Shown piece after piece: positions 6,291 to 58,780 of a stretch of DNA of 62,084 nucleotides (position 1 is its first letter; each line of letters opens with the position of its first letter). The position numbers were made by a program, and so were the translations under genes. The notes beneath the pieces are model-generated. The model saw only the letters and a list, made by a program, of their open reading frames with translations, searched no databases and had not been told where the DNA came from. This DNA comes from a virus (taxonomy: Duplodnaviria > Caudoviricetes): positions 1-62,084 of the IMG/VR virus record IMGVR_UViG_3300042504_002530. One strand, written 5' to 3'.

Positions 6291-6672
6291 TGGGGGTTAG
6301 AAACTTGGAGTAAATGGGTTATCTGAGCCGTTCCGCGCGTCCGTCCGCGTGCGCAAGCACCCCCGCCTGCACGTTGGGGGGTGTTGTATCTTGTGTTACA
6401 TGACGATTTTTTGCCGATTTTGCGCCGACCATACCAACCCCTAAAGGGGTGGTAAAGTACGCCGAAATGGGGCGTTTTGGGCCGACCGAGAGAGGGGTCG
6501 TGTGATGCGCGTTTCCGCCCGAGCATAATGCCCGCGCCGAAAGAGTGGGTGTTTGAACACCCCTCGTTTTGGTCTATACATCTTCGATGTATTGCTCCAT
6601 AACACATCTTACATCCTCCGTTCCCCACCTCTACACCTTCGGTGTAAGCTCCATATACCTTCGGTATATGCT

Positions 6673-6714
6673 CCGTAACACAACTCAAACAAGCCGTAAC
6701 ACAATTCAAACAAG
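6673..6714 (+). repeat. Tandem 21-bp repeat CCGTAACACAAYTCAAACAAG x2
   Basis: Read directly. Confidence 0.9.
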
Positions 6715-7092
6715 CCCCAAATGACACGCCGTGTACGCGTACCCGCCTTGGCGGTTCTTCAAGAACCGCCGCGCAGTGTCCGAAGGACACCGCCCGACCC
6801 CGCGACACCCCCGCGTTACCGCGCCGCCGCCTTGGTATCCCCTTCGGGATACCGCCCGTAGCCCAAAAAACGCGTCACGCTTAGGCATAATGCGTAATCC
6901 CCCCACATTTCGCGTCATCCCCAAATGATACGCGCGCGGTGCTTTCGTCAACTGCTTGATTTTCAGCGCCTTTGCCGAAATCAAAATGTGGATAACTTTT
7001 TTCACCCCCTAACTTGCTGATTTTGAGCCGTTTACATACTCACCGAAAATTTAATTTGACCCTGTTGGGCTGCATTCGGATTTTGCCGTTTA

Positions 7093-7100
7093 TACCTTTG
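7093..7100 (+). promoter_or_regulatory. Bacteroidota sigma-A -7 element (TACCTTTG), first early promoter
   Basis: Matches TAnnTTTG; precedes the structured RNA and the early gene arm. Confidence 0.65.
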
Positions 7101-7634
7101 CATCGCCGACTGACAGCAAACTGACCTCGGCTCCCCACGATACAGACTACCTTGGTAGTCATTGTGGATTACTTGTGACCTACTAAAGTAGGGGTGACAG
7201 CCCAAAACAGAGAGGACAAGGAGAGGTCATAATTTCTAATTATGATGTCGGATGCTTCGTAGTGGTTCCTTACGGAAAGGAACTTAGGGTAGCCGCCTAT
7301 TTCGTGGCTGAGGAATCCCGCACTCCGCAAAAACGGGAACAGGGCAAGGTCAAGCCAAGATTGACCCCGAAGGGGACTGCGACAAAGCAGACCCTACCTT
7401 AAAAAGGTACTTCGGCGAAGGGAAAAGGACAAAACTCCTACGGAGTAAAACCCGATTCCTTACTATGTAACGGCTTTGGTAACACAAAGTATTCCAACCG
7501 AAGGTTGCATAGTGAGGGGGTGGCGCAGACCGAGTTCGTCTAAAAGCCCGATGTGAGCGCTAGAGCCACGAAGATAGAAAGCAGGTTACTAACTATTGGC
7601 CACCCCGAAGGGGTGAAACTTCGGGATTGGTCAA
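7101..7634 (+). ncRNA. Large structured ncRNA candidate (~530 nt), class unknown
   Basis: No credible ORF; more than 12 hairpins and nested long-range helices with G-U pairs on the + strand. Confidence 0.7.
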
Positions 7635-7696
7635 GGCAAAGTACAAGGCAAAGGGGTGTTCAAACACCCCTTGGGGTTCGACTCCCCACTTTGCCA
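7635..7696 (+). ncRNA. tRNA-like element 1 (62 nt; acceptor + T arm, palindrome hairpin in place of the anticodon arm)
   Basis: GGCAAAG/CTTTGCC acceptor stem, TGGGG-TTCGACT-CCCCA T arm, discriminator A. Confidence 0.8.
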
Positions 7697-7764
7697 CAAT
7701 GCCCCGTTGGGGGGCTAAAGCCCCAACAAACCCTTTTTTTCAACGCCATAAACCCTAAAAAATC

Positions 7765-8376
7765 ATGGCTACATTATCCCCCATCGCTCAAATCGTCCGT
7801 TCCAACGCCCAAGTTGCAGAGCAACTCAAGGTCAAGGAAATTCGCACCGTTCTCGCTTCAATAGAGAGCGGTAAACAGAAAGTGTTTACCAAATCGATTG
7901 AACAGGCCCGTCTTTTGGCTAACGCCAAAGAGTGGTTCAACTCCAACAACTCGCTCTGTAAAGAGCGAGGCATTACTTGGAAGTCAATTTTGTCCGATAT
8001 ATTCGGTTTTACCGAATCGGCTATTGAATCCAAGTGGCCCAACCAACTACTGAAAGTAGGGGATGTGACCAATGAACAACTCGAAGAGTTCGTCAAGTGG
8101 GCACAATCCAACGACAAGTCGTTGTCGGTCAAGCAGTTGTACCTTTGGCTGAAGGGCGAAACCGAAGAGACCACCGAAGGTGGTGCTGAAGGCGAAGAAC
8201 AAGCGCCAAAGGCGCAGTGTGTGTGCAGTTGGACGTTCAAACTCCCACTTGTTGGGCAGGGTGAGCGTAATGTATCGGTGAGCATTGACACCGAAGGTGT
8301 TGTCAAGACCTCCAACACGGAGGACGAGTTGCGCCTTGCATACGAAATGATGGGCAAGGCGCTTGGCCTTGCATAA
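7765..8376 (+). CDS. First early protein, unknown function
   Basis: 203-aa ORF with A-rich initiation region, followed by palindrome hairpin and T-tract. Confidence 0.85.
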   Translation: MATLSPIAQIVRSNAQVAEQLKVKEIRTVLASIESGKQKVFTKSIEQARLLANAKEWFNSNNSLCKERGITWKSILSDIFGFTESAIESKWPNQLLKVGDVTNEQLEEFVKWAQSNDKSLSVKQLYLWLKGETEETTEGGAEGEEQAPKAQCVCSWTFKLPLVGQGERNVSVSIDTEGVVKTSNTEDELRLAYEMMGKALGLA

Positions 8377-8453
8377 GAGAAACCGACCGACGGGGGGGGT
8401 GTTCGAACACCCCTCCCTTTTGTATTTCATTCAACCCTTAAAACCCAACCAAA

Positions 8454-8711
8454 GTGCTAAACATTACCAAAAATTTCCAAAAAACCGAGTCCGTGTCCGT
8501 TATCATCCGCTTTGGCCTAACGGTCAACGGCCACGAAGTGACGGGCGAATGCGAAGCATGGGCAAGCGACGGCGTTATGGACGCAGGAAGCATCGTGAAA
8601 TTTGATAACTCACATCTCATGTATGAGTCGGGGCTGTTTTCTCCCGACGAAAAGGACGAAATTATTGAGTATGTACAGCAGGGCATCGACCTCCCAAAAA
8701 TCAGCGAATAA
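8454..8711 (+). CDS. Hypothetical acidic protein
   Basis: GTG-start ORF bounded by two palindrome copies. Confidence 0.7.
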   Translation: MLNITKNFQKTESVSVIIRFGLTVNGHEVTGECEAWASDGVMDAGSIVKFDNSHLMYESGLFSPDEKDEIIEYVQQGIDLPKISE

Positions 8712-8756
8712 AGGGGGTGTTCGAACACCCCTCCAACCCAACCCTAAACAAACACA

Positions 8757-10106
8757 ATGCAACACCCTGAGAATTGGTACATTCCCGTAACCCAAGAGAA
8801 CCGCGCCGAACTTGAGCCGTGGTGGCTAATACAGGCCGTAAAAAGCGGATGGACAGGCAAAAAAGGCCACCTAAACATAGACACCCTGCTGCTTTCAGTA
8901 CACCCTTCCGATAGCAGTTATTATTGGAGTGGAAGCGAGAGCGGTTTCGAAGCAGACCACCCGTCCTATCAAAAAATCACCTTAGAACAATTCCGACAAA
9001 TCACCAACCCTAAACCCCAAAAATCGATGAAAAAAGTATCATGGAAAGAAGTCGTGGCCAAGACCACCGAGTCCTCGAGCGAGGCCATCGCCCAAGTCGC
9101 ATCCAAGGCAATCGCCCAAGCCCTTGCGGAAATTGCGCCACCTACGGGGGGCGAGTTCGACCCCGAGGAAGTGCGCTCGTTGGTCCGCGAGGAAATTGAA
9201 GGCCAAATCGGGGTCATCGTCCACCGCCCCGAGTTGAAGGACGCACTCATGGAGGTCGGGCGCAAGGTATCCGACGACCTTGAGCAGGTGTACATGGCCC
9301 GCTTCGATTCGCTCACTCAGGAGGCGGAGCGCAAGGCTTCACACCGAGTTGAGGTTTACCGAGAAGGGGTGTCCGAACACCCCTCCCACGTCGAGGAAAT
9401 CGCCCACCACAACCTGCACCACTTGATAAAGATGGTGGCGCTCAAGTTGAATGTGGCGCTTATCGGCGAGGCGGGGTCGGGCAAGACGTTCGGTGCGGAG
9501 CAGGCCGCGAACGCTTTGGGACTGCGCTTTTTGCCCATGAGTTTCCACGCCAAAATGACCGCGACGGATATCAAAGGGTACTGCGACGCGAACGGCAATT
9601 ATGTGCCGAGTATCCTGTACGATGCGTTCAAGAACGGCGGGGTGCTATGCTTGGACGAGTTCGACCGCTCGAACACGGAGGTCACGGTGTCGCTCAACAA
9701 CATGTTGGCCGGCAGTGCGTACATGTTCCCGAACAACGAGATAGTGCGCAAGCACGATGATTTTCGGGTCATCGCTTGTCAAAACACGACGGGTTCGGGT
9801 GGTAGCAAGACCTACGCCGCCGCTTCGCGGCAAGATTCATCCACGCTCAATCGATTTGTAAAAATCGAGTGGAACATTGACGAAACGATGGAGCGCAAGG
9901 TGGCAGGCGACACCCACGCCACCGAGAAGGTGCAGGCCATACGTCGCAAGGCCCGCGAGTTGGGTGTGGATATCGTCATCAGCCCACGCCAAAGCATCCA
10001 TGTGAATACCCTCATGGATGCGGGGTACAGCTTGGGCGAGGCGCTCAACTACGCCATCTACAACTGCCTTGCCGACGATGTGAAGGAACGATTGAGCCGA
10101 GTTTAA
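8757..10106 (+). CDS. MoxR/CbbQ/CobS-like AAA+ ATPase with N-terminal 'WYIPVT' module (possible internal start at 9027)
   Basis: Walker A GEAGSGKT, Walker B LCLDEFD, DSSTLNRF arginine finger, ISPR sensor. Confidence 0.9.
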   Translation: MQHPENWYIPVTQENRAELEPWWLIQAVKSGWTGKKGHLNIDTLLLSVHPSDSSYYWSGSESGFEADHPSYQKITLEQFRQITNPKPQKSMKKVSWKEVVAKTTESSSEAIAQVASKAIAQALAEIAPPTGGEFDPEEVRSLVREEIEGQIGVIVHRPELKDALMEVGRKVSDDLEQVYMARFDSLTQEAERKASHRVEVYREGVSEHPSHVEEIAHHNLHHLIKMVALKLNVALIGEAGSGKTFGAEQAANALGLRFLPMSFHAKMTATDIKGYCDANGNYVPSILYDAFKNGGVLCLDEFDRSNTEVTVSLNNMLAGSAYMFPNNEIVRKHDDFRVIACQNTTGSGGSKTYAAASRQDSSTLNRFVKIEWNIDETMERKVAGDTHATEKVQAIRRKARELGVDIVISPRQSIHVNTLMDAGYSLGEALNYAIYNCLADDVKERLSRV

Positions 10107-10153
10107 GGGGGTGTTCGAACACCCCTATTTTTCCACCACTAAACCCAACCAAA

Positions 10154-11050
10154 GTGAGATACGAACACGACAAAAAGAAAGATTTAGTCAAGATTGCGAC
10201 GACCTTCCATGAGTACGTCCAACTTGCGAACGAGTACAAGAGCGGCGACGTGGGGTATGGTTCGTGCGAAAGGCTTAGCAAACCCAATGAGTTTCGCGGC
10301 GACGCATTGACCTTCGAGCAGATGTACGACCGTTGCTACGACGGCTACAACGCCAAGGCCATCGGCGAGCAACGCAAGAAAATCGCCGAGTTGTTTCAGT
10401 GCGAGCGTCCCATGGATGAGTTGCGAGTGAGTGGCGAGGCGCTCGACGTTCCGACGTTCTTGAGCGGAGAGCCGAAATGCTTTTGGGAATCGACCACCGA
10501 GGAGCGCAAGGCGAGGGTGCACATCGCTTATGCAAGCAACTGCACTGCGGGTCACGGGGCGCAAGCGTTCCTCAATCACGGCGGGGCCATCGCTGCTTTG
10601 TGCGACGTCATCGCCGACCAAGCCGACACGAAAATCTCCTGCTATGTGAGCAACACTCGCGTCTATGCAGGCAAAGGCTTGAGCGCCATCACCATCAAGG
10701 ACTACGACGAGAGCGTGGACATCCCCCGCATCGGGGCGACCACCCACCCTTCGTTCTTCCGACGCATCGGGTTTGCATGGTTCGAGGGCTTCGGTGCATC
10801 CATCGGCAAGCCCGAGTGGTCGGGGTATGGGTGCTCAGAGACGGGCAAGGACAGACCTGCGGTCATCAGCGACGAGGAGTTCGCCGAGTGGCTACGGGTC
10901 GAGAAGGATGAGATAGTCATCGACCTGCCCGCCGCCGACTTGTCCTGCTTTAGGAGCGAGAGTTCGACCGCCGCATGGTTAGCCAACGCCATTGACAAAA
11001 TCAAGGAAGCCATTGCGACCAAGAACAACTACATTCAACTTTTCAACTAA
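10154..11050 (+). CDS. vWA-like partner of the AAA ATPase
   Basis: G.ALDVPTFLSGEPKCF and HPSFFRR motifs; directly downstream of the MoxR-type ATPase. Confidence 0.6.
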   Translation: MRYEHDKKKDLVKIATTFHEYVQLANEYKSGDVGYGSCERLSKPNEFRGDALTFEQMYDRCYDGYNAKAIGEQRKKIAELFQCERPMDELRVSGEALDVPTFLSGEPKCFWESTTEERKARVHIAYASNCTAGHGAQAFLNHGGAIAALCDVIADQADTKISCYVSNTRVYAGKGLSAITIKDYDESVDIPRIGATTHPSFFRRIGFAWFEGFGASIGKPEWSGYGCSETGKDRPAVISDEEFAEWLRVEKDEIVIDLPAADLSCFRSESSTAAWLANAIDKIKEAIATKNNYIQLFN

Positions 11051-11086
11051 ACCCACGGATGGGGGCTAAACCAAACACCACTTACT

Positions 11087-11413
11087 ATGAGTACCAAAAC
11101 CACAATCAGCGAAGCGCTTGGCCTTTCACAGGTATGGGCAGACAAGAACCAACAGGTAGTCGAGAAGGCGTGGAGTGAGCACGACACCGTGAGCGACACG
11201 ATTCTCGATGTGCTCGAGCAGATGCGTGACGCCGAGTTCGGCGAAACGGGCGAGAAGCCAACGACTTACGAGATTAAGTTGATGATGGCGGGCATGCACA
11301 TCGGCGCGAAGAAGGGCGAGTTGGCTATGAAGAAGATGCTCTTTGAGAAAGCATTGGAGACCATGAGCGGAGACCTGCTCAAGAAATTCCGAGGCGAGGA
11401 GAGCGAAGATTAA
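11087..11413 (+). CDS. Hypothetical protein
   Basis: 108-aa ORF followed by palindrome and T-tract. Confidence 0.8.
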   Translation: MSTKTTISEALGLSQVWADKNQQVVEKAWSEHDTVSDTILDVLEQMRDAEFGETGEKPTTYEIKLMMAGMHIGAKKGELAMKKMLFEKALETMSGDLLKKFRGEESED

Positions 11414-11450
11414 GAGTGCCGAGGGGGGTGTTCGAACACCCCCCTTTTAT

Positions 11451-11532
11451 AGTCGGGTCATTCGGTGGATGCGTTGTGCCTTTTTTAGGGTTAGGTGGTG
11501 CGCATTTGCGGGTTCGACTCCCGCCCCGACTA
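11451..11532 (+). ncRNA. tRNA-like element 2 (no D stem or anticodon loop)
   Basis: AGTCGGG/CCCGACT acceptor stem, GCGGG-TTCGACT-CCCGC T arm, central GATGCG/CGCATT hairpin. Confidence 0.8.
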
Positions 11533-11590
11533 CGATGCCTACGGCGAGGCTTTGTATCGTCTTCGATTTCCTCAACCCAATTAAACACCT

Positions 11591-11797
11591 ATGAACTACG
11601 CCACTTTTTGTATCGCCGCGTACATATTACGCAAAGACCCCGAAAGGTTTGACAGACTTGACGGCGTGTGGACTGTCGCAAGGCAGTACTACAACTCGTA
11701 CTTGCACTCCAAATACAACGACATTTCAAGGAGCGAACTCGACTGCATCAATGACTTTATGAATCTAATCTACACCACTAAAACAATCAACCCATGA
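11591..11797 (+). CDS. Hypothetical protein
   Basis: ORF with A-rich start, overlaps the next gene (ATGA). Confidence 0.7.
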   Translation: MNYATFCIAAYILRKDPERFDRLDGVWTVARQYYNSYLHSKYNDISRSELDCINDFMNLIYTTKTINP

Positions 11798-12147
11798 AAG
11801 CAATCCTAATCGACCCGCACACCCGCTCAGTCTCCGAAGTAGAAGTGAGCGAAAAGAATTTCCTCAAAGACCTGTATGCCCACATCGAGTGCGGTCTTGT
11901 TGAGCGAACCATTGCCGACGACCGCAAGCATGAGATATGGCTTGACGAGGAAGGTTTGTTCAGCGAGTCCGTTCAGTTGTTCAGTCTCGAAGGCTATCCC
12001 CAAGATGCCTATGCTGGCAAGGGCGTCATGCTTGGATGCAACCGAACGCTTACCGGCTCAAAGGACTGCGCCCTTACACTCGATGAGGTCAAGGCCAAGG
12101 TCAAGTTCATGTCTCCGTATGAGTATCTCAAGAGCCGTCAACAATAA
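11794..12147 (+). CDS. DUF3846-like protein
   Basis: AILIDP...IWLDEEGL...YAGKGVMLG pattern. Confidence 0.6.
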   Translation: MKAILIDPHTRSVSEVEVSEKNFLKDLYAHIECGLVERTIADDRKHEIWLDEEGLFSESVQLFSLEGYPQDAYAGKGVMLGCNRTLTGSKDCALTLDEVKAKVKFMSPYEYLKSRQQ

Positions 12148-12206
12148 TCCAACGGGGGGTGTCCGAACACCCCCCCTTTTCTTTTCATCAACTAAACCCA
12201 AATCAA

Positions 12207-13178
12207 ATGACACACCCCGAAAAATGGTACATCCCCGTAACCGAAGAGAACCACGCAGAACTTAATCAATGGAGGCTAAGTAAAAGAACACGGGAAGCGT
12301 CAAGGCATGACAATAAGTTCGTGCCCGGCGCAACCCTTCTGTCTGCACATCCATGCGATGATGGTAGTTATTTCTATATGAAAGGTTATAGTATAACACA
12401 AATAGACAATGGCTACCAAGAAATCACTCTCGAGCAATTCCGTCAAATCACAAACACCATGAAGCACCCAAAGAAATGGTATATCCCCGTAACCAACGAG
12501 AACCACGACGAACTTAATCAATGGAGGCTAAGGGTCGCCACCTCTTATCGTGACATGAAACTCAACCCTTATGATAGCGTTGTATTATCAGCTCATCACC
12601 GTGACGGAAGCTATTATTATGCCGACGGTGTCAAAGGCTTAAAGGCAAACAACGCATACAACGACTACCAAGAAATCACCCTCGAACAATTCCGCGAAAT
12701 CACAAACCCAACCCAAACAACCATGTCAAAACAAATCCAAATCTCCCGTGAGTTACTCAACGAGTACTACGAAGCAAGCACCACCGAACAGAAGGCATAC
12801 CTATCGGAACACTTCAAGTTGGATGGGAGCACAACTGTTGAAGCCATCCGTGGACTGCACGACTTAGCGTGTCGAGGTTGGAGGCCAAAAATCAAGGCGA
12901 ACCACCCCGACTGCTTCCCCGAGGATAGCAAGTACTTTGACTTCTCCGAGCATGTCAACAAATCCGTGCAGGAAAAAAGAGTTGTTTCAGCGGATGTTTG
13001 TGAATCCTTGGGACTTACTGAAAGCACAAGAGGCTTCATTCAAGTTAGGAATAATAGCGGCAACCCACAGACGCATCATCGCTCGTTCTACCTTTCTTCC
13101 AAATACAACTGGGAACTAGTGCAAGACGGGACAGAAGACGGTCGCCCCATTATGGTACTAATCCCAACCAAGAAATAA
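12207..13178 (+). CDS. Protein with two tandem 'WYIPVT' modules plus a C-terminal domain
   Basis: HPxxWYIPVTxENHxELNQW...YQEITLEQFRxITN twice; in-frame ATGs at 12459 and 12723. Confidence 0.85.
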   Translation: MTHPEKWYIPVTEENHAELNQWRLSKRTREASRHDNKFVPGATLLSAHPCDDGSYFYMKGYSITQIDNGYQEITLEQFRQITNTMKHPKKWYIPVTNENHDELNQWRLRVATSYRDMKLNPYDSVVLSAHHRDGSYYYADGVKGLKANNAYNDYQEITLEQFREITNPTQTTMSKQIQISRELLNEYYEASTTEQKAYLSEHFKLDGSTTVEAIRGLHDLACRGWRPKIKANHPDCFPEDSKYFDFSEHVNKSVQEKRVVSADVCESLGLTESTRGFIQVRNNSGNPQTHHRSFYLSSKYNWELVQDGTEDGRPIMVLIPTKK

Positions 13179-13189
13179 TTCAATCAACG

Positions 13190-13636
13190 GGGGGTGTCCG
13201 AACACCCCCCTCTTTTCTTTTCACTTAAATCAAATCAGCCATGAGAAAATTATTATTATTATTCTTCCTCTTGACATCGTGCGTTGCCGAAGACCAACCC
13301 GTTCCATACGAGTACCGCGTTAGCGGAACATCGGGTTCGTATTCCGTCACGCTTCAAAACGCATACGACAACACGCAACAATGGAGCGAGGTCGGCAATG
13401 GGTGGTGGTACAAGTGGACACAAACAGGAGGTACGAGGTGGCTCTATGTTTCCGCGCAGAACAATCGCTCGTCGGGTAATGTTACCGTGCAAATTGTCCG
13501 AGCGGGCGTTGTTGTTGCATCAAACACATCCTATGGCGGATATAGCATCGCCACAATTTCGGGTAGATATTAACCAATGGAGGGGGTGTCCGAACACCCC
13601 CCTCTTTTCTTTTCACTTAAATCAAATCAGCCATGA
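13190..13636 (+). repeat. Identical 55-bp direct repeats (13190-13244, 13582-13636) flanking one gene
   Basis: GGGGGTGTCCGAACACCCCCCTCTTTTCTTTTCACTTAAATCAAATCAGCCATGA twice. Confidence 0.95.
13241..13573 (+). CDS. Lipoprotein (MmpS-like beta-sandwich); candidate superinfection exclusion
   Basis: MRKLLLLFFLLTS-C lipobox; YEYRVSG..YSVT..SAQN...VTVQI pattern. Confidence 0.65.
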   Translation: MRKLLLLFFLLTSCVAEDQPVPYEYRVSGTSGSYSVTLQNAYDNTQQWSEVGNGWWYKWTQTGGTRWLYVSAQNNRSSGNVTVQIVRAGVVVASNTSYGGYSIATISGRY

Positions 13637-14079
13637 AAACAGCCTATGTAAAATCCCGCCAAATCTCCTGTGTGTCCGAGCCGTCTCCGTTTGAGAAGGT
13701 AAAGATAAACGGGTCAAGCGATGCCCAAAAATTCGCACGGCAATTCTATCATGAGGACATTGAACTCTACGAGTCTATGTTTATTATGATGTTGAATCGC
13801 AACAACATGGTCACTTCATACGCCAAAATATCCCAAGGCGGGACGTCGGGAACGGTGGCAGACCCAAAGATTATTGCGAAGTACGCGGTGGATGACCTGT
13901 GTTCCGGCGTAATCCTTGTACACAACCACCCGTCGGGTAACAGAACTCCGTCAGACGCCGACATACGCTTGACGACAAAAATAAAACAAGGATTGGGAAT
14001 GTTTGAAATCAAACTACTTGACCACATCATCTTGACCGCAGACGGATACGCATCCCTAGCAGACGAAGGAACAATCTAA
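13633..14079 (+). CDS. radC: RadC-like JAB domain protein
   Basis: E..(ESMF) and HNHPSGNxxPSxAD JAMM motif, LLDHII. Confidence 0.92.
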   Translation: MKTAYVKSRQISCVSEPSPFEKVKINGSSDAQKFARQFYHEDIELYESMFIMMLNRNNMVTSYAKISQGGTSGTVADPKIIAKYAVDDLCSGVILVHNHPSGNRTPSDADIRLTTKIKQGLGMFEIKLLDHIILTADGYASLADEGTI

Positions 14080-14090
14080 CTCCATAACAA

Positions 14091-14618
14091 ATGAAATACA
14101 AAATCTATCATCGCATCGACAATAGTTATGACATCATCACGGAGGACGGAGGCGTAGCCGTCTTCTATCACAACCAAGAGAACTATGTGACGCATTACTA
14201 TCAGAGAAGCCTCAGCGAGTGCAACCCTGCGAACTATGTGTGGGACGAACTATCCGAGGGCAAAATCTACATCAACGATTGGGAAGGTAGCGACGAACCT
14301 CCGAAGGAAGAAGTAATCAAAGACGCGCTCGAGTGGCTTGTGTTTCCTGCCCCCGCAGAAGGATGGGAACTTGACCAAAGTATTTGGAGCGAGTTCTTTC
14401 CGATGACAATAGTGGGCAGGCACGTTGAGGGCATATCTCTGAACGGACTTGAGTATCTGTTAAACGAGGACGGGAGTGTTATGCAATTCGCATCCGAGTA
14501 TCACGCCAAGAAATTTCTCCGTTCAAAGATTCACGAAGATGTCACCGACGAACTGCTAAACGAGGTTTTCACATTTGAAACAACGGGTGTTCAAACACCC
14601 CCTAAACCAAATGACTAA
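14091..14618 (+). CDS. Hypothetical acidic protein
   Basis: 175-aa ORF; EGISLNGLEYLLNEDG motif; palindrome copy near the 3' end. Confidence 0.8.
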   Translation: MKYKIYHRIDNSYDIITEDGGVAVFYHNQENYVTHYYQRSLSECNPANYVWDELSEGKIYINDWEGSDEPPKEEVIKDALEWLVFPAPAEGWELDQSIWSEFFPMTIVGRHVEGISLNGLEYLLNEDGSVMQFASEYHAKKFLRSKIHEDVTDELLNEVFTFETTGVQTPPKPND

Positions 14619-14833
14619 TGGGACGACAAAAAGGAAAACAAACCACGGCGGAGAGTTGGATAATTGCCAACGGAAAAGCGGGCGACCATTTCTATTCGGA
14701 TAAGAAGGACGGAAGCCTGACGGCAATAGCCGCGTATCACAAGCGCAAAATCACGACCGAAAGGTTAATCACAATCACAACGGGAGGTAAAGAACCTAAA
14801 GCCAAGTACATAACAAAAGCCACTTTACTATGA
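14618..14833 (+). CDS. Hypothetical protein
   Basis: Coupled start/stop overlaps. Confidence 0.7.
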   Translation: MGRQKGKQTTAESWIIANGKAGDHFYSDKKDGSLTAIAAYHKRKITTERLITITTGGKEPKAKYITKATLL

Positions 14834-15078
14834 CGGAATACATCATAACAAATCATTTATTCTTTGAGGACGGGACGTCCGACAGAAACACCGAGACGTT
14901 CAACAAATACAAGGACGCTATGGGTTATGCAAACTGCATGACCGAAACGAGCGAACTGCCCCCGAGCGGCGTTGACTTCACGGTATTGGAAACTGTGGAG
15001 TACGCTTTCGTAAGTGGGCACGGAGAGCTTCCCGACGAATGGAATGAAACAAGAAGAACCTTAACCTACTTTATTTAA
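14830..15078 (+). CDS. Hypothetical protein
   Basis: Coupled ORF. Confidence 0.7.
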   Translation: MTEYIITNHLFFEDGTSDRNTETFNKYKDAMGYANCMTETSELPPSGVDFTVLETVEYAFVSGHGELPDEWNETRRTLTYFI

Positions 15079-15080
15079 CC

Positions 15081-15239
15081 ATGGAAAAGATAAGCCTCAC
15101 AATCCAATCAGCCTTCCCTTCGGGGATGCTCACGATTTCAGCCGTCGTCAAGGGACACCTTGTGCGCAAGCGTTACATGGGTTACTCAAAGACCCAAGCT
15201 AAAAGGCTATTCATTCAAACCATAAACTCCAAGCCATGA
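15081..15239 (+). CDS. Small hypothetical protein (52 aa)
   Basis: Manual translation MEKISLTIQSAFPSGMLTISAVVKGHLVRKRYMGYSK...; ATGA overlap with the next gene. Confidence 0.6.
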   Translation: MEKISLTIQSAFPSGMLTISAVVKGHLVRKRYMGYSKTQAKRLFIQTINSKP

Positions 15240-15559
15240 ACAACGAACTCACACCCCACATTGAATACTACCCCAACGGGAATGTAAAGGTTAAAGGACA
15301 AAAGAACTCCAAAGGGCAAGAAGAAGGTATTGAGGAGTTGTTCTATGGAAACGGCAACATCCGTGTGAGAACCCCTTACAAAGGAGGTAAGGAGGATGGA
15401 ATTGAGGAGTGGTTCTATGATAACGGAAACATCGAATGTAGAATCCCATACAAAGGTGGTGAGAGGGATGGAATTGAGGAGTGGTTTCATCCAAACGGAA
15501 ACATCATAAAAACTTATGTATGGAAAGACGGAGAACTAATTGAAGAAACTGAACACTAA
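15236..15559 (+). CDS. MORN-variant repeat protein (YwqK-like)
   Basis: 24-aa repeats GIEEWFYxNGNIxxRxPYKGGxxD. Confidence 0.85.
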   Translation: MNNELTPHIEYYPNGNVKVKGQKNSKGQEEGIEELFYGNGNIRVRTPYKGGKEDGIEEWFYDNGNIECRIPYKGGERDGIEEWFHPNGNIIKTYVWKDGELIEETEH

Positions 15560-15570
15560 GCCCAAACAAA

Positions 15571-15855
15571 ATGACCAAAGAATTTATCCTACCCACCGAC
15601 TTCACGAAACTCAACCCGAGAAAGAAGAAGCAAGTACGCGAGCAGTATGCGAGAATGCAGAAGGGCTTGTGTATGTATTGCAACGAGCCATTGGACGGAC
15701 AACCGCCCGAGAGAATCACAAGTCTGCCGGTCAACTTCCCCGCTCACTTCTTCAAGTATCCCGTGCACCTTCAGCACAATCATGACACCAACATGACCGA
15801 GGGCGCAGTGCATTGTTATTGCAACGCAGTCATGTGGCAATACGAAGGACGATGA
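15571..15855 (+). CDS. Endonuclease VII/HNH-like zinc-finger protein
   Basis: QxGLCMYC...HLQHNH...GAVHCYCN. Confidence 0.7.
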   Translation: MTKEFILPTDFTKLNPRKKKQVREQYARMQKGLCMYCNEPLDGQPPERITSLPVNFPAHFFKYPVHLQHNHDTNMTEGAVHCYCNAVMWQYEGR

Positions 15856-15925
15856 GAGGGGTGTTCGAACACCCCAAGAATAAATTTTGTTTTTTCAAAT
15901 TAACTTACTATATTTATACAACAAC

Positions 15926-16081
15926 ATGACACGAATCCCAAACTTTAGACTATGGCAGTTATACATACGCAAGGCGTGTGTGTATGCCGAAATGCCCAAA
16001 GTGTCGGACATCAAGTCGCCGATGCGAATCAACTGGGTCCACCTTGGAAATGTAATCGAAGCAAAAAAACAACTATCATGA
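15926..16081 (+). CDS. Small hypothetical protein
   Basis: ORF coupled to the next gene. Confidence 0.5.
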   Translation: MTRIPNFRLWQLYIRKACVYAEMPKVSDIKSPMRINWVHLGNVIEAKKQLS

Positions 16082-16335
16082 AAAGAATACTCAAATTCCT
16101 ATCAACGGCAAAGGACAGGTATCATCGCGCTATCGTCCAACGCTTCCAACGCCTAAGCGATAAGCCCTACGAAATCACGGAGCAAGATGTGTTGTCAACG
16201 CGAAGGGTTGCCATGTACTGCTACCTCGACCACTATAACGTAGTGGTTGACAACGATGGTCACTTCCACCTAAACGGAAGAGTATTCACTGATGAGTCTC
16301 ACCTTTTAACCCACATAAAAAACGATGCCAAATAG
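16078..16335 (+). CDS. Hypothetical protein
   Basis: Start re-called at MKRILK. Confidence 0.65.
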   Translation: MKRILKFLSTAKDRYHRAIVQRFQRLSDKPYEITEQDVLSTRRVAMYCYLDHYNVVVDNDGHFHLNGRVFTDESHLLTHIKNDAK

Positions 16336-16597
16336 CGCCCAAATCAAAAAGACGTGCGATGAAATCTGCACGCTTTTGCAAAAGAAGAACGCCGCCTACG
16401 GAGATTCAGCGGCAAATCCAATCCGTGTATTTTCAAAGGCTCAACCAATAGAGGGCATTCTTGTGCGCATTGACGACAAGTTATCCCGCATACAAAACGC
16501 GGGTCTTACCGACTTATCTATGGCCGAGGACACCCTGCTTGACTTAATTGGCTACTTAATCTTATTAAAAATAGAAAATGACAGAGGAAAAGATTAA
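16325..16597 (+). CDS. Nucleotide modification-associated domain 1 (DUF1599/Nmad1-like)
   Basis: KKNAAYGDS...VRIDDKLSRI...EDTLLDLIGYLIL. Confidence 0.8.
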   Translation: MPNSAQIKKTCDEICTLLQKKNAAYGDSAANPIRVFSKAQPIEGILVRIDDKLSRIQNAGLTDLSMAEDTLLDLIGYLILLKIENDRGKD

Positions 16598-18544: not shown

Positions 18545-18558
18545 AAAAAACAAAGACA

Positions 18559-18840: not shown

Positions 18841-18893
18841 TAGGTACTTAGGGGTTTTCAACAAGGGGGGTGTCCGAACACCCCCCTTTTTTT

Positions 18894-21468: not shown

Positions 21469-21470
21469 CT

Positions 21471-51481: not shown

Positions 51482-51550
51482 TTGATTTGAATTTAAAGGT
51501 TAAAAAAATAAAGGAGGGGGTGTTCAAACACCCCCCCCTTCGGTAATCTT

Positions 51551-52996
51551 TTAGGCCCGGAACAAGAAGAAGTTGTTCGAACCAAGTGTACAAACACAAC
51601 GCTCAGACAGGTAGTGGACCTCCATTGCGTCAAGGTCGCTTGTTGCAGCGCCACCGGCAGAACCAGTTGCCCAAGTTTTGAACTTCCTGTCTTCTGACTC
51701 TGTTTGACGATAACGAACGTGCAAGAATGGACGCTTGGCGTTCTGACCCATCACCTGGTCATAAACATTGGTAGAGCCGGCAGGAACAAGCATTCCATTA
51801 ATTGCGCCACCAACAGTACCGCTTGCAGTACCTTGACCACGCATAGTTGGGTCATTCAGGTATTTCCAGTCGGTTTTGTAGAAGTCATAACCACGGCGGA
51901 ACCCACGGAAACCAAGGTTCAAAGCCATCTGTTCGCTGTTGTTAAACAGACCATAAGATGTTCCACCGGTTCCATAAGAGTTCTGAGCAGCCAAGAAGTC
52001 ATCCATAGCAAAAGAAGCAGCGCGGTTTACGAACAAAGCATTCTCCTCGATAGCACCCTGTTTGTCAAGACGCTGAACAATGGCATCAAAGTCAACAAGG
52101 CTAGTAGGATAACCTCCGCTGAACACGTTCCCGTTTGCAGCTACCTCAAAAAAAACACCTTTTGTACCTTTCAAAGAAGGAGAAGCGCCAATAGCCCCAG
52201 AGCCAGCCCCGGCAGGAATCGCCTCAAGCATGGAAGACTCTAGGTAATCCTCAAAGCGAAGACGGGTTTCGTGCTCGGCCTTCATGTACCACAGGTATCC
52301 GGACGCTCCGTTTTCGGTGGTGACTTCAACCCAGCCAATCTGGGTCATGTCAGAACCGGTTACGGTAAATTTGTCCTTCAAAATAATAGGGCTATTGTCC
52401 TTGAAGATGTCAAAAGACTGAACGGACTGCTGCATTCCAAGTTGTCCTTTTGCAAACTCAGAACCATATACCCACAAAGTCCAGTTAGCGCTAGCAACAG
52501 GAAGTCCACCCGCTTCATAAAAAGCAACAGTAACAGTTGCAGCGGCAACGGCCGTTACAACAGCGTGAACGACGTTCGTTCCGTTTTCTTGCTGGCAGAT
52601 AAGTGTTTGACCAACACGAATACCATTTACGTTGTTTGTTCCTGTTCCGCCCAAAAGAGGGTTGTTTGTAGGAGTTTGATACTGAGTCGTAACAATAGTG
52701 AAGACAGCGGTGCTATCGGCAGCCGCCGCCGTAGTGGTACAGCCGGTATATTTAACGTGAAGACGACCTTGCTCTGCCCACTTGATAAGGTCAGAGGCGC
52801 AGGGCATTTCAGCACCTACCATACGCAAGAATCCTGAGATACTACGATTACCATAGCGCTCAAATTCTGCTTCATAGATGTCTGGCAAATACTGATTTAA
52901 AAAGTTGAAATTAGAACTATCGATGTAGTTCGTGGCGGTTACTTGCCTATTAATACTGGGCTGTAACGCAAAAGTTGGAGAAGATAAAACTGGCAT
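51551..52996 (-). CDS. Major capsid protein
   Basis: QYLPDIYE.EFERYGNR...WAEQGRLH; follows portal and scaffold; hairpin terminator downstream. Confidence 0.85.
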   Translation of the reverse strand: MPVLSSPTFALQPSINRQVTATNYIDSSNFNFLNQYLPDIYEAEFERYGNRSISGFLRMVGAEMPCASDLIKWAEQGRLHVKYTGCTTTAAAADSTAVFTIVTTQYQTPTNNPLLGGTGTNNVNGIRVGQTLICQQENGTNVVHAVVTAVAAATVTVAFYEAGGLPVASANWTLWVYGSEFAKGQLGMQQSVQSFDIFKDNSPIILKDKFTVTGSDMTQIGWVEVTTENGASGYLWYMKAEHETRLRFEDYLESSMLEAIPAGAGSGAIGASPSLKGTKGVFFEVAANGNVFSGGYPTSLVDFDAIVQRLDKQGAIEENALFVNRAASFAMDDFLAAQNSYGTGGTSYGLFNNSEQMALNLGFRGFRRGYDFYKTDWKYLNDPTMRGQGTASGTVGGAINGMLVPAGSTNVYDQVMGQNAKRPFLHVRYRQTESEDRKFKTWATGSAGGAATSDLDAMEVHYLSERCVCTLGSNNFFLFRA

Positions 52997-56543: not shown

Positions 56544-58780
56544 TTAGTTATGATTTGGCTTAATCGGCCGGAGTTGTTATATCGCGTAAAGTTAACACTT
56601 ATTTTGGAGCTCTTCATTTCAGGCACATACAAGTGTTTTTGCGTTGCCATGATGGCTAAACCTGAGCTAATTGATGCGTCATGCTTGGTTCTGTCCATTA
56701 TATTGAACATTGCCCAGTCGTATAAAGTCCGGTTAAACGGCATGTCCCCGCACTCCGAGGGGTGTCTGAACACACCATCGGTGTCATATCCGACGTATTT
56801 TTCAATGTAGGACTCAATGGCCGAAGCATGCGCTTGTCGTACTTCCTCGCTGCTATTCGGTATTCCTCCAAGTTCTAACTCTGTTTTTGACAACTTTGCC
56901 GTTGGCCGGTCGGGCCTGTTCATTGAATACGCCCGGTATCCACGATTCTTTAGGTGGTACAAAAGCCGGGCTTTGTTGTTCTCTGCAAGCATTGGCATTC
57001 CATAAAACACAAGGGCCATCAAAACGTCTTCAAAGAATATCTCCGCGGTTTGAGGTCGGGCAATGTATTCCAAGAAAAACGTATTGGTTGGCGCATCAGA
57101 ATCCATGTGAAACTTGGTCAGACCATGAAGAGCCCCATTCGAACCACCGCCACCAACTACACCGGAAATGTCATAGGAGTCGCACCCAAACGCGCCAAGA
57201 TGTTCGTTTCCGGGATACCTACGGCCGTTCTTTTCCGTATACCGGTTTTGCAGGTTTGCCGGCGGAATCCAACTTACTAGGAATCTCCCGTTGTTGCTTG
57301 GGGCCCAAATGACCTTTGTGTCCTTTACGCCATTCTCCCATTGGAAGCCACCTCTCGTTAAAAGCTGGCCTTTTATCATTCCATCGTTGTAGTCGATTTG
57401 CTGATAGATTTTTGCAAGGTTGAACAACGACTGCCGGCTTTCATCGCGAAATGCATGGGCTTCAGTTCTCGGAAACTGCCGGTAAAACTCGTTCAACGCA
57501 TCTTGGTCGTGCTTCAAGGAGCTAACCTCGTTCTCCCAATAATTAATGGCGCCCAAGACTATCTGCCGGCCAGAATGGTCAACGACTTTCTTCTTTGGCG
57601 TTTCCATAACCGGAAACCCATGCTGGTCAATGTACCCCTCAAAGTTCCACTCCATAGGGACAAAAAACTTATACAGTCCGCTCTTTGTCTGCCCGTTGGC
57701 GTTTCTTTTGCCGGCGTAGGAATCGTCGTACAACTCCTTGAAATTGCCACCGCCCTTGGATAGTGCATTTACCGTAGAACCCATCAAGCACTTACCAACA
57801 ATTCGGCTACCGACCCTGAGCGTCGTTTTTGTGACGCGCCAGTTGTTTAGGATATTCTCCGGCTTTTCCCATTTCCCGGATTCGTCATGAACCAAGAGAA
57901 TCAACTTTTCTCCGTCATAACTGTTGTCCGCGGTGTTTCTCCAGTCAATCGTCGTGTTTAAGCCGTCGGGGTCGTCCGCCGAAAATGCTTCGTGCATGTT
58001 CTTCTTCGTAATTTTTGAAGCCGGAACCCTAAATGCGAGCTCCGTTTTCGGCTTGTCCATGCCATCCTGAATAGGCTTGAAAAAGAATGGATAGTTTCCG
58101 GATATAGGGACGACTTTGTCCGTGAACATCTTCTTGGCATCCGTACCGGTCTTCGAAAGAATACCCACCCGGGAATCCCTCGAGAGCGTGGCGATATGAA
58201 CCGCAATGGCCGAACTCATAAACGAAAATCCAGAACGGCGAATCTTCAGATAGCACATTCCAAAGCATCTTGGGTCAGCCAAGCATGCTTCCCAGAATAT
58301 AAAGAACAACCGGTTGGCCTCCCGGTACTCAGGTTGTCCAATGTCAATTTTTGTCCATTGCAGGTACATGTAGTAACTGCCCGGCATGTAGGTCTTGACA
58401 CCATTGTTCATAAACCAAAATCCCTGCTCCCTTCGGTCGAACTCTTGCTCAATGTAGTCGACCCACATGCTCTTGAACTCTCGAGGCATGTCATGCCATT
58501 GAAAGATGGTCTTTATCTTTTCGAGTTGGGCCGGGTAAGCGAATCGCTCCCAATACTGGTCCGCCGGCCTAGTGCTTCTCTCGTAGCATATTTCGGGTGC
58601 TTCCGGTAGCGCTATTTTTAATCCGCTGATTTCATAAACGTCCCCGATGGTCCCGTCCCTTGATATGACAACCATGTCGTATTCCGGGTCGTATCCATAG
58701 TCCCATCGCTTCTTCCTTTTACCGGTAGAAGGAGCAGGCAATACCCTGTACAGCGCACTATTTTGCTCTACCTTCTGCAA
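56540..58780 (-). CDS. terL: Terminase large subunit
   Basis: KIRRSGFS Walker A, VHDESGK Walker B, GCDSYD nuclease motif, HDASISSG. Confidence 0.9.
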   Translation of the reverse strand: MQKVEQNSALYRVLPAPSTGKRKKRWDYGYDPEYDMVVISRDGTIGDVYEISGLKIALPEAPEICYERSTRPADQYWERFAYPAQLEKIKTIFQWHDMPREFKSMWVDYIEQEFDRREQGFWFMNNGVKTYMPGSYYMYLQWTKIDIGQPEYREANRLFFIFWEACLADPRCFGMCYLKIRRSGFSFMSSAIAVHIATLSRDSRVGILSKTGTDAKKMFTDKVVPISGNYPFFFKPIQDGMDKPKTELAFRVPASKITKKNMHEAFSADDPDGLNTTIDWRNTADNSYDGEKLILLVHDESGKWEKPENILNNWRVTKTTLRVGSRIVGKCLMGSTVNALSKGGGNFKELYDDSYAGKRNANGQTKSGLYKFFVPMEWNFEGYIDQHGFPVMETPKKKVVDHSGRQIVLGAINYWENEVSSLKHDQDALNEFYRQFPRTEAHAFRDESRQSLFNLAKIYQQIDYNDGMIKGQLLTRGGFQWENGVKDTKVIWAPSNNGRFLVSWIPPANLQNRYTEKNGRRYPGNEHLGAFGCDSYDISGVVGGGGSNGALHGLTKFHMDSDAPTNTFFLEYIARPQTAEIFFEDVLMALVFYGMPMLAENNKARLLYHLKNRGYRAYSMNRPDRPTAKLSKTELELGGIPNSSEEVRQAHASAIESYIEKYVGYDTDGVFRHPSECGDMPFNRTLYDWAMFNIMDRTKHDASISSGLAIMATQKHLYVPEMKSSKISVNFTRYNNSGRLSQIITK

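Follow-up and report, generated by a model that had tools for sequence, protein, structure and literature searches.

In the early mRNA of phage T7 and in the Bacillus phage SP82, intercistronic RNase III hairpins, once cut, leave the upstream message protected by a stem at its 3′ end. In phage lambda, the small arginine-rich peptide N reads boxB/nut hairpins at two nut sites, with terminators downstream. Histone mRNAs end in a stem-loop (6–7 bp stem, four-base loop) that is cut a few bases downstream and read by SLBP. At the level of DNA, plasmid RK2 carries the short perfect KorB-OB palindrome about a dozen times on one replicon, and REP/BIME elements are extragenic palindromes past stop codons, which can stabilise the upstream mRNA and which flank the RAYT gene. 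Hammerhead ribozymes have been described as punctuating the polycistronic transcripts of phages and prophages (Perreault et al. 2011, PMC3088659), and the PeSLs of T4-type phages as motifs combining terminator and promoter, through which genes are shuffled (PMC4122927). Cutting of phage messages into pieces the size of a gene by conserved hairpins, ribozymes and tRNAs is known or suspected; why one identical stem should occur throughout a phage has so far been unexplained.

We analysed a viral DNA stretch of 62,084 nucleotides, referred to as the window, in which an earlier note had claimed twenty copies of an 18-bp palindrome, 16 of them in the + arm. Every copy was recovered in its place. 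The sequence GGGGTGTNNNNACACCCC has 15 exact matches in the window, compared with a mean of 0.00 and a maximum of 0 in 100 dinucleotide-preserving shuffles. When up to two mismatches were allowed, GGGGTGT-N4-ACACCCC gave 20 matches, each with at most one mismatch (shuffle mean 0.04), and the palindrome set thus comprises 15 exact and five one-mismatch copies. The + arm (7653–27037) holds 16 of the 20, the remaining four being at 6546, 35403, 51517 and 56759. On the + strand the 20 centres read CCGA (eight), TCGA (five), TCAA (four), TCGG, TTGA and CTGA (one each). As the note had also said, asymmetric centres mostly read YCRA on the locally transcribed strand (13 of 15), with 51517 and 56759 as the exceptions. 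An unbiased scan of the window (5–6 bp arms, loops of 3–8) found no second palindrome family with more than three copies. Outside the window the exact motif is rare. In IMG/VR it occurs in at least 116 stretches; among the 80 listed, four have it at two places and the others at one. With one genome per species (185,579 species) it was found in 55 stretches, among which there was no multi-copy Bacteroidota host. The copies and neighbouring features are as follows, placed on a crude gene map of ATG-only greedy ORFs:

6546–6563, − strand: copy with one mismatch, sense loop TCAA, near or just before the 5′ end of a − strand ORF; ATG on the − strand 19 nt downstream
7336–7654, no strand assigned: non-coding stretch in the divergent region, without a long ORF (ORF map, metatranscriptome contigs)
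7635–7695, + strand: tRNA-like minihelix holding copy 7653–7670 (sub-threshold Rfam matches, fold)
7765–8376, + strand: first gene of the + arm, 203 aa, candidate hairpin reader, its family co-occurring with palindromes
8396–8413, + strand: exact copy, 11-pair extended stem, T-tract, 19 nt past the stop of 7765–8376
8714–8731, + strand: exact copy without T-tract, 2 nt past a stop codon; ATG 25 nt later
9366–9383, + strand: exact copy within an AAA_5 ATPase gene, frame 0, encoding GVSEHP
10108–10125, + strand: exact copy, then T-tract, 1 nt past a stop codon
11425–11442, + strand: exact copy, T-tract, 11 nt past a stop codon; tRNA-Lys starts 8 nt on
11451–11533, + strand: tRNA-Lys (UUU), directly 3′ of copy 11425
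12156–12173, + strand: exact copy, T-tract, 8 nt past a stop codon
13191–13208, + strand: exact copy, T-tract, 12 nt past a stop codon
13583–13600, + strand: exact copy, T-tract, 9 nt past a stop codon
14584–14601, + strand: copy with one mismatch, in the final 34 nt of an ORF; next ATG 16 nt on
15858–15875, + strand: exact copy, 2 nt past a stop codon; RNA contig end at 15874
17218–17235, + strand: exact copy in the 79-nt overlap of ORF 16868–17266 and the Sak annealing-protein gene
18867–18884, + strand: exact copy, 11-pair stem, T-tract, 26 nt past a stop codon
22152–22169, + strand: exact copy within an SNF2-type helicase gene, encoding GVSEHP
22947–22964, + strand: copy with one mismatch within the helicase gene, encoding GVFKHT, aligned with a conserved xVFGxx motif; may be a chance near-copy
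27020–27037, no strand assigned: exact copy at the arm convergence, abutting the stop codon of the − strand gene 27038–27931
35403–35420, − strand: copy with one mismatch within a 3609-aa gene, sense loop CCGA
51517–51534, − strand: exact copy, T-tract, 16 nt past the stop of the capsid-like gene 51551–52996
56759–56776, − strand: copy with one internal mismatch in a homologue of the MW202828 gene annotated as large terminase; probably a decayed copy or a chance match

Eleven of the 12 intergenic copies sit 0–26 nt past a stop codon on the same strand. Their terminator-like appearance had been noted before, and a T-tract (at least six T in the next 12 sense-strand bases) indeed follows 8 of the 14 intergenic or gene-boundary copies, the copy after the capsid-like gene in the − arm having it on the − strand; a simple terminator scan detects seven copies, on the + strand. 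T-tracts are absent at 8714, 14584, 15858, 27020, 6546 and 7653 and at every clearly coding copy, and no cutter is visible at the six of 14 intergenic or gene-boundary copies that lack one. Exact copies 9366 and 22152 lie deep inside genes, where it is not apparent what a 3′ end would be for. The T7 and SP82 RNase III sites are likewise conserved hairpins between early genes; those, however, are longer, irregular double-stranded RNAs read by a host enzyme, whereas the hairpins here have 7–11 bp, are identical and lineage-specific and occur also in genes.

A tRNA-type element adjoins or contains two of the 20 copies. Copy 7653 forms the middle arm of the minihelix at 7635–7695, which has an acceptor stem, the hairpin and a T-arm, with no D or anticodon arm. 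This element matches the Rfam tRNA-Sec (27 bits) and mascRNA (25 bits) models below threshold and folds at −31.7 kcal/mol (z −4.9). Copy 11425 is followed after 8 nt by the tRNA-Lys, the 5′ processing of which would give the upstream RNA a 3′ end close to the hairpin. The related genome G003 has three tRNA-like minihelices, each containing its own hairpin. In three metatranscriptome runs, consisting of unstranded contigs that could include DNA, 7336–7654 is the deepest-covered part, and contigs end at 7654, 11419, 15874, 18854 and 18893, beside hairpins that DNA contigs bridge; one RNA contig stops at the start of hairpin 7653. These ends are a weak hint of transcript ends.

Related phages carry palindromes of their own. 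That of MW202828 is GTGTCGTTAACGACAC, with 14 exact copies; G001 has GTGTGT-N3-ACACAC and G003 has GTCTC-N6-GAGAC, while GTGTCT-N4-AGACAC is the palindrome of G005 and ten further loci, and two additional related loci have further types. In 12 related loci, 25 of 53 + arm copies are fused to hammerhead ribozymes, as identified by pattern: a type III hammerhead follows 20 copies, and five more copies are stem III of a type I. Conversely, the hairpin is present on 25 of the 36 hammerhead-like motifs in these loci, and in L269 and L273 Rfam Hammerhead_3 (RF00008) scores above the gathering threshold right after hairpins. In the window, no hammerhead was found by pattern (CUGANGA...GAAA core) or in Rfam at gathering and E-value thresholds, and no other catalogued ribozyme was found; its tie to ribozyme punctuation therefore rests on the relatives. 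As in the punctuation described in PMC3088659, the relatives' hammerheads stand between single early genes, with the palindrome fused to them in the same slot; the window differs from it in having T-tracts and tRNA-type elements and no ribozyme. Main-text passages of that paper mention neither a genome-wide identical stem-loop by the ribozyme nor a co-occurring protein.

Copies inside genes track each lineage's own palindrome without indels. At Sak codons 11–16, the window encodes GVSEHP (copy 17218) where G001, with its own palindrome at those codons, encodes SVLDTP. The helicase copy 22152 sits in an eight-residue insertion common to the window and G001, and helicase copies encode SLFSET in G003 and SVFEDT in G005. 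The 7765–8376 family gene itself contains VVNDT in MW202828 and SLLSET in G003. G001 also has its own palindrome at the junction matching copy 27020, and the giant genes of relatives likewise hold one or two palindrome copies. The motif thus behaves as a lineage-specific recognised element rather than a generic terminator. The earlier proposal of a lineage-specific recognition site is supported in part, by a separate palindrome for each lineage, the same slots and co-evolution inside genes; its operator, parS-like, packaging and recombination readings are not supported.

The note had further proposed checking whether the palindrome co-varies with one protein across lineages; one of the candidate binders it named, the 7765–8376 product, belongs to a family whose presence does follow the palindromes. 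An HMM of this family detected a homologue in all five palindrome-bearing genomes and none in G004 (best E 0.078). Across the 44 genomes or loci with sufficient sequence, the palindrome family was present in 15 of 15 with a homologue and in 0 of 29 without, and this was the only gene family found here to track the palindromes. On a GroEL tree the trait switches at least 4–6 times, and four of four independent pairs are concordant (sign test p = 0.125). The association could also come from physical linkage in a swappable early region. In most family-bearing loci with sufficient sequence, the window included, the gene is flanked by hairpins, one 94–262 nt before the ATG and another 5–24 nt past the stop. 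In the protein, a flexible acidic linker joins a basic helical N-domain (pI 9.0) to a small C-terminal domain. The 99 members have zero invariant columns, so it is probably not an enzyme, and it may be the reader of the hairpin. Like lambda N, this fast-evolving candidate is encoded by the first gene of the early operon with a lineage-specific hairpin upstream of its own gene; unlike the N/nut system, there is about one hairpin per gene, the protein family is unrelated and the hairpin is the terminator stem itself.

The reading we favour, with slightly better than even confidence, is that of an RNA stem-loop at message 3′ ends read by a phage factor, for which the 7765–8376 product is the best candidate. 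The anatomy, the co-evolution and the co-occurrence are observed. The palindrome would act in the transcript, each message ending in a stem of 7–11 bp closed by a YCRA tetraloop. In the window phage, these ends would be generated in vivo mostly by intrinsic termination (the hairpin, then a U-tract) and at two sites by tRNA-type processing (the minihelix with its hairpin; the tRNA-Lys after another), and in related phages the same slot contains a hairpin of the lineage's own type joined to a self-cleaving hammerhead. The common product would thus be an mRNA ending a few bases past one standard stem-loop. We infer a phage factor that reads this stem because all copies in a genome share its sequence, lineages have different ones and it persists even inside genes. 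Upon binding, the 7765–8376 product would make the tagged RNAs more stable or regulate how they are terminated or translated; the antitermination-controlled terminator listed in the earlier note may apply.

Alternatively, the hairpins could be plain intrinsic terminators or 3′ stabilisers read by the host, identical through the copying of a terminator-plus-leader cassette homogenised by recombination, with no dedicated protein. In favour of this explanation are the G/C-extended stems followed by T-tracts, seen in 8 of the 14 intergenic or gene-boundary copies, and evidence of copying: copies 13191 and 13583 are alike at 38 of 40 downstream bases, and the cassette at 12150–12202 (the hairpin and leader of copy 12156) is 94% identical to one in G001, where the adjacent gene is 77% identical. 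Copies are also densest amid small, poorly conserved genes, and the phage encodes recombination functions (Sak, exonuclease, VRR-NUC). The cassettes resemble PeSLs (PMC4122927), being near-identical stem-loops at variable early-gene borders with signs of sharing with a relative, G001; they differ in having no Sigma-70-like promoter consensus beside the hairpin (22 matches versus 24.4 expected), and what that source presents of PeSLs includes neither occurrence within genes nor a link to a dedicated protein. Copying, however, leaves unexplained the in-frame copies that match the lineage palindrome without indels or flanking homology. Six of six genomes compared have a terminator at the place orthologous to copy 18867, yet orthologous terminators in MW202828, G003, G005 and G004 have unrelated GGGGAG-type stems, and a generic terminator therefore needs no such palindrome sequence. 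In MW202828 no copy has a T-tract, ribozyme or tRNA-like element. Neither the perfect co-occurrence with one gene family nor the variable hammerhead stems of relatives without that gene would be expected from this explanation, which we regard as unlikely.

A further possibility is an operator that a dimeric helix-turn-helix protein (the 7765–8376 product or the wHTH protein 3671–4183) recognises as duplex DNA, repressing or blocking early-arm transcription in the style of KorB-OB or the stoperators of Cluster A mycobacteriophages. Perfect dyad symmetry, the co-occurrence of gene and sites and the site 94–262 nt before the family gene, within the divergent promoter region of the listed family-bearing loci and of the window, would all suit such a protein. 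A basic N-domain, a flexible linker and a small C-terminal domain are typical of dimeric DNA binders, and the family product shows this layout. The N-domain also gave weak fold matches to KorB (Z 5.1 over 87 residues) and Spo0J (Z 4.5; VIA), in a comparison listing PDB 1r71 and 1vz0, and BFVD gave a weak Spo0J-like match (E 0.02). These Z scores, however, are in the chance range for helical proteins. No Pfam ParB or HTH family was found in the 99 members, and a profile search of PDB sequences returned as its sole match amphiphysin (E 0.011), which is irrelevant. The repeated short perfect palindrome thus recalls KorB-OB and ParB-parS, whereas the protein has no ParB N-terminal domain or sequence match and the sites show transcript-strand features.

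Those features weigh most against a duplex operator. Among 61 exact + arm copies, with G-U pairs allowed, the flanking bases add on average 2.46 stem pairs when read in sense, versus 0.95 in antisense and 0.62 at random (Wilcoxon p = 0.0002), so the stem extensions work on the sense strand alone. Copies 8396 and 51517 of the window show the same pattern, the sense-strand stem of 51517 being 7 pairs longer. Sense loops in the + arm of GTGTCT-type relatives read TCAA in 37 copies, TTGA in three and ATGA in one, with 12 palindromic; this bias was not found in the other arm of those relatives (TCAA 6 versus TTGA 5), and innermost-pair variants in G001 showed no sense-strand G-U preference (two for, two against). 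A duplex operator needs no sense-confined T-tracts, hammerhead stem III or tRNA-like arm, and the spacing of the conserved outer GTGT and ACAC differs from 4 to 8 bp between lineages. The T-tracts, the sense-only extension, the tRNA-like embedding and the hammerhead fusion in relatives together place the function in the transcript, which speaks against the earlier note's readings as a parS-like, packaging or recombination site and, for the most part, against its operator or stoperator. Its proposed binders, the two DnaA-IV proteins and the wHTH protein, also occur in G004, which has no palindrome family. We consider an operator quite improbable.

N4 hairpin promoters have three-base loops. A REP-like selfish palindrome spread by a transposase, or a set of N4-style virion RNA polymerase promoters, is very improbable even though copies flank the family gene and lie past stop codons as in REP/RAYT systems and the phage encodes a 3609-aa virion-type protein and a crAss muzzle homologue: coding copies are aligned residue replacements without indels; no insertion footprint or tyrosine-transposase signature was found (26 window proteins searched against Pfam and 10 against PHROGs, 29 different in all); the flanked gene has no invariant residue, Pfam or PHROG family, which makes a Y1/HUH enzyme unlikely; the 3609-aa protein shows no polymerase domain by Pfam or PDB sequence search, which a divergent one could escape; and the loops here have four bases, in copies that abut upstream stop codons and downstream T-tracts, which fits ends rather than starts.

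Relative to known punctuation by hairpins, ribozymes and tRNAs, the new element is the partner protein. More tentatively, we propose that a widespread group of Bacteroidota podoviruses may tag the 3′ ends of early messages with a standard stem-loop read by the fast-evolving 7765–8376 family, much as SLBP reads histone mRNA, the two co-evolving lineage by lineage while the mode of cutting is interchangeable; we see this wider scheme as possible rather than probable. By analogy, a standard stem-loop would end a class of messages and have a dedicated reader; there is no homology to the histone system, and in the phage the end would come from termination, from a ribozyme or from tRNA-processing enzymes. 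Terminators, ribozymes and tRNA-like elements would then be interchangeable makers of one RNA end.

Linking the stem to an uncharacterised protein family provides an RNA–protein pair that can be put to the test and for which nature supplies specificity variants: seven or more stem types, with a cognate protein for each, form candidate pairs. If binding is true, phages would have their own equivalent of the histone stem-loop/SLBP system, the 7765–8376 family, which has 254 representative clusters in public data, would gain a function, and orthogonal RNA tags with their readers would become available for Bacteroidota. For the phage itself, such a tag–reader pair, if true, could be a means to stabilise, translate or spare its own RNAs during host RNA degradation.

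The window is a complete virus record (62,084 bp, CheckV completeness 100%), with rightward genes between about 7.6 and 27.0 kb (the + arm) and leftward genes in all other parts (the - arm). The nearest match of its capsid-like protein belongs to MW202828.1, an uncultured spring podovirus (61% identity), with phages of Maribacter, Flavobacterium and Cellulophaga as remoter matches. DNA near-identical to the window is present in many lake metagenomes; no close relative at the DNA level was found in the GenBank phage collection. Besides the genes listed here, the window codes for an AAA_5 ATPase, a Sak annealing protein, a PDDEXK exonuclease, an SNF2-type helicase, a VRR-NUC nuclease and two DnaA-domain-IV proteins.

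4357-5913, - strand: GroEL
7765-8376, + strand: first gene of the + arm, candidate reader of the hairpin
19051-21468, + strand: BT4734-like primase
27928-38757, - strand: 3609-aa protein
43354-48021, - strand: homologue of the crAss-type muzzle protein

The 3609-aa protein showed no Pfam domain above threshold and no sequence match in the PDB; its homologues in relatives measure 2665 to 4525 aa, with one or two copies of the lineage's palindrome each. A virion RNA polymerase, known from crAss-like phages, may be part of it. G+C content is 52-54% at 2000-12000, a stretch that includes the GroEL and GroES genes, unusual for a 62-kb podovirus, versus 42-47% in the remaining genome. Two genes, that of the AAA_5 ATPase and 12207-13178, match one segment of the related genome G001 in their 5' parts (window 8740-9010 and 12192-12710) and so seem to share an N-terminal module.

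The palindrome GGGGTGT-N4-ACACCCC is present in the window in 15 exact and five one-mismatch copies, with none expected by chance. This agrees with the twenty copies counted in the earlier note, which rightly placed sixteen of them in the + arm and read the asymmetric centres mostly as YCRA on the sense strand (13 of 15). No further palindrome family with more than three copies was found in the window. Using a rough ORF map and direct reading of the flanks, we located 11 of the 12 intergenic copies 0-26 nt past a same-strand stop codon, and two of the eight 'coding' copies (14584 and 17218) are really at gene borders. Four + arm copies, named by their start coordinates, are placed as follows.

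7653: central arm of a 61-nt tRNA-like minihelix, which has an acceptor stem and T-arm, without D or anticodon arm
11425: ends 8 nt ahead of a tRNA-Lys
14584: within the final 34 nt of an ORF, 16 nt ahead of the next ATG
17218: inside a 79-nt gene overlap

The terminator-like features described earlier were also borne out. A T-rich tract on the transcribed strand follows 8 of the 14 intergenic or gene-boundary copies, that of the - arm copy behind the capsid-like gene being on the - strand, and flanking G and C lengthen several stems to 9-11 pairs. Taken with the comparisons below, it is well supported that the hairpin works as RNA, forming the stem with which the phage's messages regularly end at the 3' side; in the window this stem usually doubles as a terminator stem.

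Relatives were located via the primase and their whole records compared. In line with the check that the earlier note proposed, palindromes belong to lineages: five lineages each have a different one at the same kinds of place. MW202828 carries GTGTCGTTAACGACAC in 14 exact copies, restricted to the early arm and typically 3 nt past a TAA and 16-23 nt ahead of the next ATG; none of the 14 is followed by a T-tract. GTGTGT-N3-ACACAC is the palindrome of the closest relative, G001, where most copies come with GGGG/CCCC extensions and T-tracts; G001 also has one window-type cassette (94% identity over 53 nt). Two further related genomes carry GTCTC-N6-GAGAC (G003), with three copies within tRNA-like minihelices built like that of the window, and GTGTCT-N4-AGACAC (G005). 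A sixth genome, G004, has no palindrome family. 'Relic' palindromes in G004 were rejected, since its near-matches total 11 over eight loop lengths versus about 14 expected by our own estimate; those that count are two positional orthologues, one behind the capsid-like gene and one in the helicase.

These genomes also bear on the rival reading that the copies are plain terminators, which the T-tracts and lengthened stems of the window would fit. Terminators stand at two orthologous places, behind the capsid-like gene and ahead of the primase gene, in six of six genomes. Both are made from the lineage palindrome in the window and G001. G005 uses its own palindrome behind the capsid-like gene and a GGGGAG-type stem ahead of the primase, MW202828 and G003 have unrelated GGGGAG-type stems at both places, and G004 combines a GGGGAG-type stem ahead of the primase with a degenerate G005-type stem behind the capsid-like gene. 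Given the unrelated stems at orthologous terminators, termination as such does not need the palindrome sequence. We keep the plain-terminator reading as a rival to a standard 3'-end stem.

To see what else follows the hairpin, we used GroEL as an anchor and collected 80 further loci. Where a palindrome family is present, the hairpin very often has a type III hammerhead ribozyme within a few bases 3', with the GUC cleavage site 6-21 nt past the conserved core; two hairpin-linked hammerheads scored above the Rfam gathering threshold. By pattern search of 53 + arm copies in 12 loci, 20 precede a type III hammerhead, five form stem III of a type I hammerhead, two are T-rich and 26 have neither hammerhead nor T-rich tract. 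The hairpin is present in 25 of the 36 hammerhead-like motifs of those loci. G005 contains two hairpin-hammerhead units, and G001 has one hammerhead, behind the first + arm gene. Neither the hammerhead pattern nor Rfam detected a ribozyme in the window which, in contrast to its hammerhead-bearing relatives, fills the same slot with T-tracts, the tRNA-like element or a tRNA. Wherever a cutter or T-tract is present, the RNA would end shortly past the lineage's stem-loop.

In relatives without a palindrome family, early genes are also punctuated by hammerheads, with variable stems. Five such loci (L237, L215, L218, L226 and L252) have type I hammerheads straight after the stop codons between successive early genes; their stem I (GGTTAA/TTAACC) is conserved and their stem III hairpins vary. 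These predicted motifs point to dense ribozyme punctuation in a freshwater Bacteroidota podovirus clade.

The strand on which the stem folds was assessed by how far the flanks extend the conserved core in 61 exact + arm copies from 12 loci. With G-U pairs allowed, the sense strand gains a mean of 2.46 extra pairs, the antisense strand 0.95 and random places 0.62 (sense versus antisense, Wilcoxon p = 0.0002, a generous value as orthologous copies of closely related loci are non-independent). The share of copies with at least three extra pairs was 39% on the sense strand versus 13% on the antisense strand. In the window, copy 8396 gains four sense versus no antisense pairs, and copy 51517 seven versus one. 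The extension sequences vary from copy to copy, so the conserved feature is pairing, in the transcript only. Comparing G-U with A-C in imperfect copies, we found the mismatches to be terminal or, in G001, two versus two. The sense loops of + arm copies in GTGTCT-type relatives read TCAA in 37 cases, TTGA in three and ATGA in one, and 12 are palindromic.

The sense-strand excess argues against a second rival, that the copies are operators recognized as duplex DNA. Among candidate binders the earlier note had named the DnaA-domain-IV and wHTH proteins. These were rejected as readers, as both kinds of protein are present in palindrome-free G004. A likelier DNA target for them is an AT-rich region of 170-200 nt ahead of the primase gene (window 18890-19050), conserved in all six genomes (window, G001, G003, G004, G005 and MW202828). 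It has repeated (T/C)GACAT boxes, for example ATGTCGAAA and GACATAATTGACAT, and is likely a replication origin or regulated promoter. Recognition hairpins for the primase were also rejected: G004, which is without a palindrome family, has a primase no less similar than the rest (63%). The duplex-operator reading is kept as the second rival.

A third rival holds that the copies are mobile elements. Copy 22152 lies within an 8-residue insertion common to the window and G001. For the coding copies that we compared, mobile insertion is ruled out by indel-free alignments: the same helicase codons hold the own palindromes of G003 (SLFSET) and G005 (SVFEDT), and codons 11-16 of the Sak gene read GVSEHP in the window versus SVLDTP in G001. 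MW202828 and G003 have their own palindromes in the first + arm gene, immediately ahead of the acidic linker. At all these places the palindrome sequence shifts between lineages and the site stays constant. We keep the mobile-element reading as a rival for the copies in general. A host repeat or CRISPR-repeat mimic is ruled out, as a search of 185,579 species genomes found the exact motif in 55 scattered stretches, with no multi-copy Bacteroidota genome among them; the motif is no common host or viral repeat.

Parts of the + arm are present as contigs in three metatranscriptome runs from different studies, in which arm parts lacking cover carry no meaning. Contig ends at 7654, 11419, 15874, 18854 and 18893 lie beside hairpins that another sample's DNA contigs bridge; as RNA contigs show neither true ends nor strand, they are only a hint of message ends. 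Cover is deepest in the tRNA region near 25 kb and in the non-coding stretch 7336-7654 between the arms, which has no Rfam match and may represent a leader or small RNA of high abundance, ending at the tRNA-like element. At 7289-7336 a 46-nt difference is seen in the RNA contigs. The region near 25 kb includes a tRNA (25073-25168; ARAGORN; Rfam tRNA 32.7 bits) whose UUA anticodon would decode TAA, a stop codon. A second copy of the 3' part of this tRNA (T-arm and acceptor) lies about 180 nt upstream (24940-24990), and in this region many different joints are seen in population data. Relatives share the T-arm and acceptor sequence, and ARAGORN calls no tRNA in those genomes. Directly ahead of many + arm start codons is a C/A-rich motif like CTAAACCCAA (8714-8757, 10126-10154, 12174-12207 and 14602-14618), replaced by CACTATCATG in MW202828 and Maribacter phage Panino (13 copies in Panino). 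Lacking a Shine-Dalgarno sequence, such motifs probably serve as leaders for translation initiation.

We then compared gene content across the six genomes for a partner of the 3'-end stem. Only one family, that of the first + arm gene (7765-8376), is common to the five palindrome-bearing genomes and absent from G004. A profile made from members other than that of MW202828 recovered the MW202828 homologue at E = 3e-20 and found no family gene in G004 (best E 0.078). Among GroEL-anchored loci that extend at least 6 kb to the relevant side, a palindrome family (at least four copies) was found in 10 of 11 with the gene, the eleventh being G001, whose family is known separately, and in none of 28 without it. 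With whole genomes added, a palindrome family is present in 15/15 with the gene and 0/29 without. On the GroEL tree the trait changes at least four times on well-supported branches and six times in all, and independent pairs agree in four of four cases, for which the sign-test floor is p = 0.125. In the window, as in most family-bearing loci for which enough sequence is available, hairpins bracket the gene, 94-262 nt ahead of its ATG and 5-24 nt past its stop.

The family comprises 254 representative clusters at E <= 0.001 among 1.84 billion proteins, and an alignment of 99 members has no invariant column. It matches no Pfam or PHROG family. In the AlphaFold model (pLDDT 81) the N-domain is helical and basic (pI 9.0), the linker acidic and disordered, and the C-domain small, with a beta-beta-alpha fold. 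Foldseek returned nothing from the PDB at E <= 0.001, a VIA fold search reached Z 5.5 at most, and a protein atlas gave unnamed viral clusters only, with DUF3102 at 0.91 as a lead. Resemblances of the modelled fold to the DNA-binding domains of KorB and Spo0J are weak pointers. Identity between members is 33-94% (median about 45%) within a hairpin type and 20-40% across types, leaving aside one short local alignment at 73%. That protein identity may follow hairpin type, only slightly beyond what GroEL kinship predicts, lends weak support to a partnership. Taking co-evolution and co-occurrence together, we put the chance that a dedicated phage protein reads the hairpin at even or a shade better.

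A 2011 paper (PMC3088659) proposed that hammerheads flank single prophage genes and may cut long phage transcripts. A full-text literature search turned up no account of a stem-loop identical across a phage genome and paired with a partner protein. Specific to the present analysis are the candidate partner protein, the lineage-by-lineage co-evolution of the palindromes at fixed places, and the strand test.
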